Shown: positions 57,184-58,355 of the stretch, in pieces
Layout of the letters: every line of letters starts with the position of its first letter
Numbering within the stretch: the first letter of the stretch is position 1
Origin: Deltaproteobacteria bacterium
Lineage (GTDB): Bacteria > Bdellovibrionota_B > Oligoflexia > Oligoflexales > Bog-1112
Assembly: GCA_947466225.1 (NCBI GenBank)
Contig: CANIBL010000007.1
Coordinates: 1,763-65,762, forward strand
Direction: 5' to 3'
Length of the DNA: 64,000 bases
Notes under the pieces: model-generated
What the model was told of the DNA's origin: nothing
What the model saw: the letters and a program-made list of their open reading frames with translations, nothing else
The model's database searches: none
Position numbers and translations under genes: made by a program

Positions 57184-57615
57184 ATGATCCAGATGACCGA
57201 ACGGGCCATCCATAAAGCCTTAGAATTACAAAAAGAAAGTAGTGAGTGGCAGCCGAAGCAGTTGCGTCTCTATCTAGAGGGAAAAGGCTGTGATGGGTTC
57301 TTCTACGGCGTGACTTTCGACGAGGCAAGCGAAACAGATTTGCGTTTTCTTCAGGAAAAAGAGGGGCTTTCCCTTGAGCTTCTTGTTGACCCGGATGCCC
57401 ACCCCTTTGTGGAAAATGTGCTGATCGATTGGGTAGAGGACACAAGGGGGACCGGATTTTTGATCCATAACCCGGATCAGCGAAAATTTCGCGGAAAATT
57501 TTTCAAACGCCCTGCTTGGCAGGAGCAGCTGGCACAGAAGCGGGAGGCTGCCGCCGCGGAGTTGGCTCAGCCTCTGCCTGAAATAGCCCTACCCCAGTTG
57601 GAGAGCATCGAGTAG
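57184..57615 (+). CDS. HesB/IscA-like protein lacking the C-terminal CGCG cysteines
   Basis: 143 aa. MIQMTERAIHKALEL...LRLYLEGKGCDGFFYGVTFDE matches the IscA/ErpA N-terminal half, including the first Cys. The region where FxNPNAxxxCGCGxSF is expected reads FLIHNPDQRKFRGKFF. Confidence 0.6.
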   Translation: MIQMTERAIHKALELQKESSEWQPKQLRLYLEGKGCDGFFYGVTFDEASETDLRFLQEKEGLSLELLVDPDAHPFVENVLIDWVEDTRGTGFLIHNPDQRKFRGKFFKRPAWQEQLAQKREAAAAELAQPLPEIALPQLESIE

Positions 57616-58355
57616 CCACAGTCGCCCAATTGCTTGCGCAGAGAATACGAATCGTGGCTAGAGAAGAGAAAAGGGGCGATGATGCCTCTGTAGAAAGAGG
57701 CCGGTATGACCCCACGTCCATAGTCCACCATATAGCTAAAGCGATCCATATCGTAATGGCGAGATTCTGTCTTGCGCAGAAGAGAGGCGTCGCCTGGTAA
57801 GTAGGAAACTGGAAATGCCACGCTGGGATCTGCAGAGTACGAATGCATCTTGCCTGTTAGCATCACATCCCATACATCCATAAAACGGTACGTACCGGAA
57901 AAGCCTTGTTGGGGCAGTTGGGTCCCAAAGAGGGCGATGTATTCTGTGGGGGAGCAATAGAGAATTTGCAGTCGCCCCCAAATGCCGCCTACATTATTCC
58001 AAATCCAACTTGGGGCGCGCAGGGTTTTGCCGGGGTGTTGGTCCTCTAAGTTTTGGTGAACTTGCTTGAGGATAAGTTCGGTTCGATAGGCTTCGATCAG
58101 GTCATATTCTTGCGTATCCACCCCATGTTCAAAAGACGAGCGGAAGAAGTCCCGTGCATAGGCGGATTTGGCGTCTCCCAGCTCTTGTATGTATTGATCG
58201 GCTGTTTGAACTGCTTTTTGCCCTGCCTCATTGATGCCTTTGGCGCTGAACACATATCTGGCATCATGCTCGGAGTCGAACTCATAATTTAGATGGGCTC
58301 CAAGACAAGGAAATGCTAGGAATGCAAGCAGACTGCACCACCGGGAATTACGCAT
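57567..58355 (-). CDS. ERG2 / sigma-1 receptor family protein (C-8 sterol isomerase-like)
   Basis: ATG at 58355 with GAGGTGG upstream and an N-terminal signal or anchor. WIWNNVGGIWG..LQILYCSPTEYIALFGT...GFSGTYRFMDVWDVMLTG...YLPGD...SYMVDYGRGVIPAS aligns by eye with human sigma-1 receptor [29 protein letters not shown]...GHSGRYWAEISDTIISG...FYPGE...WMVEYGRGVIPST. Confidence 0.7.
   Translation of the reverse strand: MRNSRWCSLLAFLAFPCLGAHLNYEFDSEHDARYVFSAKGINEAGQKAVQTADQYIQELGDAKSAYARDFFRSSFEHGVDTQEYDLIEAYRTELILKQVHQNLEDQHPGKTLRAPSWIWNNVGGIWGRLQILYCSPTEYIALFGTQLPQQGFSGTYRFMDVWDVMLTGKMHSYSADPSVAFPVSYLPGDASLLRKTESRHYDMDRFSYMVDYGRGVIPASFYRGIIAPFLFSSHDSYSLRKQLGDCGYSMLSNWGRAISGRG

Follow-up and report, generated by a model that had tools for sequence, protein, structure and literature searches.

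An Asp-type member of the ERG2/sigma-1 receptor family, probably exported, in an uncultured Oligoflexia-like bacterium

For the sigma-1 receptor (S1R, SIGMAR1), a drug target, both the native ligand and the biochemical activity remain under debate. Ligands of the receptor include amines and steroids, and ERG2, the fungal C-8 sterol isomerase of the same Pfam family, accommodates a carbocationic sterol intermediate. Homologues of ERG2 were reported in Plesiocystis and mycobacteria in 2009 (PMC2817430) and in bacteria again in 2021, when the origin of ERG2 was termed "complex" and "not conclusive" (PMC8237579), while in the searchable literature we found no described bacterial homologue of the sigma-1 receptor. 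Here we analyse a 64,000-nucleotide stretch of contig CANIBL010000007.1 (hereafter the window), which carries at 57567–58355, on the minus strand, an open reading frame (ORF) for a 262-residue protein of this family. The protein belongs to an Asp-type subfamily distinct from both ERG2 and S1R, its gene is native to its host, and the product is probably exported.

Fold, pocket and place in the family

Against the PF04622 (ERG2_Sigma1R) profile the protein scores 116.2 bits, where the curated cut-off is 21 bits (E 1.7e-33; residues 90–253 on profile positions 42–205 of 210), and a phmmer search of the PDB returned only sigma-1 receptors (5hk1, 7w2b and others; E ~1e-15, query residues 93–251), all E-values being computed against whole libraries. 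An AlphaFold2 (AF2) model built on 15 homologues, with a predicted local distance difference test score (pLDDT) of 83.5, a predicted template-modelling score (pTM) of 0.81 and low pLDDT over residues 1–30, places two N-terminal domain helices (38–70 and 83–106) before a ten-strand barrel (118–215) and two further helices (218–233 and 236–259). When this model was compared with the PDB by Foldseek, the top 42 matches were all sigma-1 receptor chains (E 2.5e-19 to 4.5e-17; template-modelling score 0.76–0.86 on the target), and ordinary cupins entered the ranking only at E ~1e-6. The homology, which a sequence-only reading had proposed by eye and suggested checking with PF04622, is far beyond chance, and the predicted fold concurs with the library-wide E-values. 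The PF04622 domain proper (residues 90–253; 57597–58088, minus strand) comprises the predicted cupin β-barrel and the two C-terminal helices. Its N-terminal part (residues 34–105; 58041–58256, minus strand) opens with a YVF(S/D)xxxL start motif, equivalent to S1R residues 35–42, followed by a helical insertion of ~35 residues that is absent from S1R in the alignment with the human protein.

Each of the motifs singled out earlier (NxGGxxG, SxxEYxxxFGT, an Asp at the D126 position and the V(D/E)YGRGVIP block) is present. NNVGGIWG aligns with S1R NAGGWMG and SPTEYIALFGT with its S1R counterpart, while MDVWDVMLTG places D163 (codon 57867–57869, minus strand; ATC on the plus strand, GAT on the minus) at the ligand-site residue D126 of S1R, and MVDYGRGVIPA places D211 (57723–57725, minus strand; codon checked in the sequence) at E172. 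Both aspartates are invariant in 15 of 15 homologues and in all 24 clade members examined. At the position of Glu172, ERG2/S1R-type members have Glu and the subfamily of the window protein has Asp throughout, so that the Glu-to-Asp substitution noticed in the sequence-only reading is a feature of the whole clade. Glu138–Tyr139 (57939–57944, minus strand), the equivalent of S1R Glu102–Tyr103, is likewise invariant in the close clade and conserved in 136–139 of the 145 family representatives. The other positions of the S1R pocket, mapped on the alignment, are mostly hydrophobic and conserved within the clade. As judged by alignment, the acidic pair and the tyrosine of the S1R pocket (D126, E172 and Y103) are retained in the window protein. 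The GGxxG motif, which has been implicated in oligomerisation of S1R (PMC4106346), is also found in it.

An exhaustive profile search of 1.84 billion representatives recovered 571 clusters at E ≤ 1e-3 and 55 at E ≤ 1e-30; a word-indexed profile search contributed hardly anything further. In a neighbour-joining tree of 145 representatives and human S1R (184 columns) the family falls into two parts, an Asp-type group (47 sequences, 83% bootstrap) and a Glu-type branch holding S1R, fungal-looking ERG2 sequences and many prokaryote-looking forms. Human S1R clusters with P0116, P0157 and P0151 in the Glu-type branch; the window protein lies elsewhere, forming with three close relatives a 100% clade within the Asp-type group. 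On this phylogeny it is not an orthologue of fungal ERG2 or of animal S1R but a member of a distinct Asp-type subfamily.

The Asp-type group also holds two clades without the YGRG motif, one with DMGIGN and the other with SFGLH in its place (Ser at the S1R-E172 position). They are found on AT-rich, intron-poor contigs (L023, 29% GC; L022, 35% GC; L015, 41% GC) beside genes for a fused small and large CPSase, PARP, a RING finger protein, metacaspase, a C-type lectin, FNIP repeats and a SET domain; these clades look protist-like, although their origin is unproven. A giant-virus origin of these AT-rich sister clades was considered and rejected: scans of IMG/VR viral contigs with the bacterial clade and the two protist-like clades gave no match, and a fold search of BFVD returned generic cupins only.

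Within the Glu-type branch, a 202-residue PF04622 member, P0165, occurs on archaeal-looking contigs, at 8001–8609 of L016 (ena:ERZ27254752:k141_1160138, 134 kb) and at 3719–4327 of L017. It starts with MAHVFDP and has no signal or membrane segment. Its gene directly follows an EMC3_TMCO1/DUF106 (Oxa1-like insertase) gene within the ribosomal cluster L6-L32e-L19e-L18-S5-L30-L15-SecY ... L34e, with Pelota and an archaeal-type PheRS nearby, and from this archaeal-type context it follows that the ERG2/sigma-1 family is present in archaea. Another Glu-type member is a lipoprotein-like protein of Myxococcota. Hence, the family is not exclusively eukaryotic, and its earlier description as overwhelmingly so, already at odds with the bacterial homologues of 2009 and 2021, was overstated. 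Its history is not simply "eukaryotic with rare bacterial imports", and there is a hint of an older, broader family.

N-terminus, cysteine pair and genomic setting

The reading frame starts with ATG 58355, an alternative GTG 58361 adding two residues, and the 262-residue product is identical in independent gene calls on two other assemblies. Upstream of the ATG and directly adjoining it lies the Shine-Dalgarno-like AAGAGGTGG (AAGAGGTGGT at 58357–58366, minus strand), and it is the position of this sequence that favours ATG 58355 over GTG 58361. About 30 nucleotides upstream of the start, at 58388–58416 (minus strand), TTGACA-17 nt-TACAGT matches the sigma-70-like promoter consensus at 10 of 12 positions; this is a consensus match only, and promoter-like sites are no more numerous than in shuffled sequence. 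The gene is monocistronic at every locus compared.

In a heuristic analysis of the N-terminus, residues 1–21 (MRNSRWCSLLAFLAFPCLGA|H; 58293–58355, minus strand) have the features of an export signal, with a basic n-region, an h-region of ~14–16 residues and a cleavage-like L-G-A|H end. The same heuristic finds signal-peptide-like N-termini, short, basic and hydrophobic with A-x-A-like ends, in most of 24 clade members examined. The hydrophobic stretch of the window protein is too short for a single transmembrane anchor of the S1R/ERG2 style. The signal or anchor sequence noted earlier is thus signal-peptide-like, and we infer that a cleavable Sec signal peptide directs the export of the protein. 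Many family representatives carry bacterial-type signal peptides or lipoboxes. For P0003 and P0004, however, a lipoprotein reading was discarded, their 'lipobox' matches lying too early in the h-region to be credible.

Two cysteines, Cys134 (codon 57954–57956, minus strand; at S1R Ala98) and Cys246 (57618–57620, minus strand; at the S1R pocket residue Tyr206, in the last helix), are invariant within the clade. Among 146 family sequences the two columns covary, with both cysteines in 45, neither in 86 and one in 15 (Fisher p 2.5e-23, without correction for phylogeny). Members with export signals are enriched for the pair (33/45 vs 31/97, odds ratio 5.9), whereas cytosolic-type and eukaryote-type members lack it. 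A periplasmic Cys134–Cys246 disulfide probably ties the last helix to the barrel. In their profile of hydrophobicity and hydrophobic moment the C-terminal helices are similar to α4/α5 of human S1R, which is compatible with their lying on a membrane surface. The cysteine pair also occurs in both the Asp-type and the Glu-type branch, including the Myxococcota lipoprotein-like protein (P0082), and may mark exported sigma-1-like proteins of prokaryotes in general.

The window further carries ordinary housekeeping genes of bacteria, for EF-P, AccBC, transketolase, class II aldolase, pyruvate kinase, MDH/LDH, PSD and FtsK, sufBCD-nifU, kup and five tRNAs, which were all that an Rfam scan of the window returned, none of them near the ERG2-like gene; many window ORFs have no Pfam match. 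Among taxon-labelled transketolases, those closest to the one in the window (~60% identity) belong to metagenome-assembled genomes (MAGs) of Oligoflexales, Oligoflexus, Pseudobacteriovorax and 'Deltaproteobacteria'. Motif-limited profile scans found ERG2-like homologues in only five MAGs among 185,579 species genomes, labelled Bdellovibrionia, Oligoflexia, Pseudobdellovibrionaceae, Oligoflexus and Deltaproteobacteria, and, similarly, at 5 loci among 241 million metagenome records. A single-protein scan of the species-genome contigs had given no match, and it was the profile scan that found the 5 loci. By these markers the host is an uncultured Oligoflexia-like member of Bdellovibrionota; judging from their names only, the sample codes of related contigs may point to freshwater and groundwater studies.

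Composition was compared across 49 window genes, and the ERG2-like gene falls within one standard deviation (sd) on all three measures: GC (0.507 vs 0.484 for the window, sd 0.035), GC at third codon positions (GC3; 0.536 vs 0.477, sd 0.067) and synonymous-codon log-likelihood (−1.179 vs a mean of −1.164, sd 0.045). This comparison with neighbouring genes, proposed when a foreign origin was first suspected, gives no foreign signal. Orthologues of 67–73% identity occupy the same slot after YqeY-Ddl2-(Kup) in related lineages and have diverged about as much as their neighbours (Ddl2 74–77%, SufD 66%), and even at 43% identity a homologue, from a 'Deltaproteobacteria' MAG, is found ≤4 kb from yqeY. 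Composition, the conserved slot and the residual yqeY linkage therefore speak for long residence and vertical descent: the gene is native, long resident and vertically inherited. Across the 13 loci compared, only yqeY recurs as a neighbour beyond close relatives.

Other features of the window and of related loci deserve mention. The neighbouring tandem Ddl (60398–62839, plus strand; 813 residues) consists of two complete D-Ala-D-Ala ligase units (Dala_Dala_lig_N/C twice), an unusual Ddl architecture kept at 74–77% identity in related lineages (L009, L010 and L011). In codon usage no window gene is more atypical (log-likelihood −1.314, ~3.3 sd under the mean) than an 884-residue ORF at 21711–24365 (minus strand), which has neither a Pfam nor a PHROG match. 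Its GC is raised (0.554), and a foreign origin can be suspected here with better reason than for the ERG2-like gene. At 43265–48496, five ORFs in a row that lack any Pfam or PHROG match come after a SprT-like/DUF2786/DUF7168 protein (phrog_421); this run has a lower GC (0.42–0.46), ends at a tRNA-Cys (48423–48496) and may be a small integrated element, a PHROGs scan of the 43–48 kb region returning one function-unassigned family only. A gingipain-type C25 peptidase with propeptide (35999–37993, plus strand), an M23 peptidase with a Csd3-like domain (41979–43355, minus strand) and two adjacent eukaryote-type Ser/Thr kinases (63383–63955, minus strand, and past the window end in L001) would be consistent with a predatory or host-interacting lifestyle. 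In L012 (8373–14930) a distant homologue lies between a 4HBT thioesterase and a menE-menA-menB-menH-menD menaquinone cluster, whereas the window lineage has instead a MqnC/CofH-like radical SAM gene (48634–49680; futalosine route); a quinone link drawn from this neighbourhood is a single case and was rejected as evidence.

Proposed role and competing explanations

With a probability of about 0.6, we interpret the window protein as a periplasmic, membrane-surface, lipid-binding or isomerase-like cupin, a native and vertically inherited Asp-type member of PF04622 whose overlap with the convergent neighbour is passive. A Sec signal peptide would be cleaved and the cupin barrel would reside in the periplasm, a compartment topologically like the lumen of the endoplasmic reticulum (ER). 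The two C-terminal helices would probably place the protein on the membrane surface, while the Cys134–Cys246 disulfide would staple the last of them to the barrel. The buried, mostly hydrophobic pocket would hold a cluster of Asp163, Asp211 and Tyr139, perhaps with Glu138, corresponding to the D126/E172/Y103 site of S1R. By analogy with S1R and ERG2, it may bind a membrane-derived lipophilic ligand, for which a polycyclic or isoprenoid lipid is the leading guess, and may either hold a positive centre or protonate and deprotonate a double bond. The gene, monocistronic and with its own promoter-like site and Shine-Dalgarno sequence, would act alone, and the 49-bp tail-to-tail overlap would be a passive consequence of tight gene packing. 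A small bacterial subfamily of this kind, with the pocket chemistry kept, apparently exported, with a probably disulfide-locked lid and in a phylum not known for steroids, is undescribed in the searchable literature. Such a protein could be a tractable bacterial model of an enigmatic fold, and one that is easy to express.

Several points weigh against this interpretation. The host taxonomy comes from one marker protein and MAG labels, export was called with a home-made heuristic, and the putative disulfide is deduced from covariation, whose statistic ignores shared ancestry. No partner gene recurs across the 13 loci, and the negative result for the sterol pathway covers the window and these loci. 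The phylogeny that the sequence-only reading had called for does separate the Asp-type group from ERG2 and S1R (83%), but it supports no deeper order within this group, the bacterial clades being monophyletic in no replicate of the 184-column neighbour-joining tree. Furthermore, the protist-like sequences in the Asp-type group could reflect an ancient gene transfer, from protists to Bdellovibrionota or the reverse, a tentative possibility that is compatible with the role proposed here.

More speculatively, and with a probability that we consider low, exported, disulfide-stapled sigma-1/ERG2-like cupins might be old prokaryotic membrane-surface lipid handlers, ancestral to eukaryotic ERG2/S1R; the members from Bdellovibrionota and Myxococcota would belong here, together with the cytosolic archaeal form beside the EMC3/Oxa1-like insertase gene. 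Alternatively, within the same speculation, eukaryotic prey or hosts might be the source of sterol-like lipids that the Oligoflexia branch captures or senses. In both cases a soluble homologue from bacteria would be a tractable model for the debated native ligand and chemistry of S1R.

Among the rival explanations, the one that survives best, though still unlikely, sees in the protein not a periplasmic housekeeping component but a factor for predation or host interaction, secreted or exposed at the surface, whose task would be to capture or sense lipids, for instance sterols, from prey or eukaryotic hosts. The apparent export signal would suit such a role, as would the patchy and rare distribution (5 loci in 185,579 species genomes and 5 in 241 million metagenome records, from motif-limited scans) and the ecological contact suggested by the protist-like sister clades; the phylum is predatory (PMC8067016), and crystal structures of Xenopus S1R with progesterone and dehydroepiandrosterone sulfate (DHEA-sulfate) show that the fold can hold steroids. 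Yet no secretion-system, toxin or predation gene is linked to the ERG2-like gene, its neighbourhood is one of housekeeping genes (suf, kup, ddl), and nothing indicates passage past the periplasm.

Improbable, too, is the idea that the overlap of the ERG2-like gene with its IscA-like neighbour is a functional antisense device coupling the expression of both. The overlap itself is real. The minus-strand gene ends with TGA 57569–57567 and the plus-strand gene with TAG 57613–57615, leaving 49 bp (57567–57615) in common; as it is defined by stop codons, the overlap is independent of gene calling, and two independent assemblies, L001 and L002, contain the same two ORFs. The other convergent overlaps in the window are shorter, at 7 and 10 bp, and no terminator-like site was found between the two genes or in the overlap, so that their transcripts must run into each other. 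Homologues elsewhere overlap convergent genes by 4, 4, 7, 20 and 31 bp, the last being a reduced form of the IscA-like overlap in one related lineage and the others (4–20 bp) involving unrelated partners. Moreover, the part of the overlap that is conserved specifies DCGYSMLSN in the ERG2-like protein, and this core is kept equally at the locus of a 73%-identical orthologue, where there is no IscA-like gene, so the minus-strand protein alone explains the conservation of the DNA, and the apparent conservation of the IscA-like C-terminus (…LESIE) can be a by-product. RNA folding of the overlap revealed no unusual structure (z +0.7 and +1.2), and the two genes overlap in the phase that constrains them least, with their third codon positions superimposed. 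We conclude that the overlap is incidental and reflects tight packing in a compact genome. Of the earlier suggestion of an overlap with antisense transcription through both ends, the overlap stands, whereas antisense regulation would be an extrapolation that the unrelated overlap partners do not favour; antisense coupling is possible but unsupported. For annotation, this long convergent overlap needs no special explanation.

The neighbour itself (57184–57615, plus strand; 143 residues with a 43-residue C-terminal extension) is transcribed divergently from sufBCD-nifU-nfu-rrf2. It has no Pfam match, and all its NCBIfam scores lie below cut-off (best TIGR00049, 55.2 vs 58.8), with equivalog models far below. 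Only the first of the three cluster-binding cysteines is present (GKGCDG), the C-terminal CGC being replaced by ...HNPDQRKF..., so that neither by profile cut-off nor by the C...CGC pattern does it qualify as an A-type Fe-S carrier (IscA/SufA/ErpA). A 78%-identical orthologue keeps the 43-residue extension. Taken together, the protein appears to be a degenerate, divergent HesB/IscA relative.

Slightly less credible again is the view that the protein truly isomerises sterols at C-8 within a bacterial sterol pathway, a role that has been put forward for ERG2 homologues of myxobacteria. Membership in PF04622 and the retention of both acidic residues and the tyrosine would fit such an enzyme; sterol-producing bacteria with ERG2 homologues exist (PMC2817430, PMC8237579), the family has a Myxococcota member in our data, and mevalonate as well as squalene synthase genes are reported from Oligoflexia, yet these bacteria are not known to make steroids (PMC8237579). 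However, the window protein does not group with ERG2 in the neighbour-joining tree, Asp replaces Glu at the E172 position clade-wide, and the protein looks exported, whereas enzymes of sterol biosynthesis act on the cytoplasmic/ER side. Furthermore, Pfam scans covering ~40 of the 49 main ORFs detected no sterol, squalene, hopanoid or isoprenoid gene in the 64-kb window, and the 13 related loci hold no sterol, squalene or hopanoid gene; oxidosqualene cyclase, CYP51, C-14 reductase and C-4 demethylation genes are thus missing from the window and from these loci. For annotation, "ERG2/sigma-1 receptor family protein" is the appropriate name, not "sterol isomerase".

Finally, a recent horizontal acquisition from a eukaryote, which the sequence-only reading had raised and which the eukaryotic origin of the best characterised family members and the Asp-type sequences on AT-rich contigs with eukaryote-style genes might suggest, is rejected as very improbable because codon usage and GC are native, orthologues of 67–73% identity that have diverged like their neighbours sit in the same slot, and a homologue of only 43% identity is still linked to yqeY. 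In addition, a Shine-Dalgarno sequence of bacterial type and a promoter-like site precede the gene, and every labelled relative is from Bdellovibrionota, as are those of the transketolase. For a recent transfer, this is the kind of outcome named beforehand as speaking against it.

Comparison with known systems

Generic bacterial cupins such as quercetinase (5FLH) and HppE (1ZZ8) share the cupin-type β-barrel with the model of the window protein (Foldseek E ~1e-6), but this match is thirteen orders of magnitude weaker than that to S1R, and these proteins have neither the PF04622 motifs nor the C-terminal helical cover. The emopamil-binding protein (EBP), the C-8 sterol isomerase of animals and plants, catalyses the same reaction as ERG2 and binds similar cationic amphiphiles. 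It is nevertheless a four-helix membrane protein unrelated to the window protein in sequence and fold, and is not homologous to ERG2 (PMC2817430).

Fungal ERG2 (EC 5.3.3.5) and its myxobacterial and mycobacterial homologues belong to the same Pfam family as the window protein and have the same acidic pair; Desmond and Gribaldo (2009; PMC2817430) and Hoshino and Gaucher (2021; PMC8237579) provide the precedent for bacterial family members. The window protein differs from them in lying outside the Glu-type branch of ERG2 and S1R, in having no sterol pathway context in the window and the 13 loci, in being probably exported, and in coming from a phylum not known to make steroids (PMC8237579).

To S1R (PDB 5HK1, 7W2B and 8W4B) the window protein is only ~22% identical, and it sits in a different subfamily branch. 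Asp stands in place of Glu172, a short, cleavable-looking signal peptide in place of the ~25-residue membrane anchor, and the conserved Cys134–Cys246 pair at the positions of Ala98 and Tyr206, while a helical insertion of ~35 residues follows the first helix. On the other hand, both belong to the same Pfam family and share, as far as the predicted model goes, a cupin barrel with a two-helix C-terminal cover; both have a hydrophobic N-terminal segment directly before the YVF start of the domain, and in both the GGxxG motif, the residues equivalent to Glu102/Tyr103 and Asp126, and an acidic residue at position 172 are conserved.

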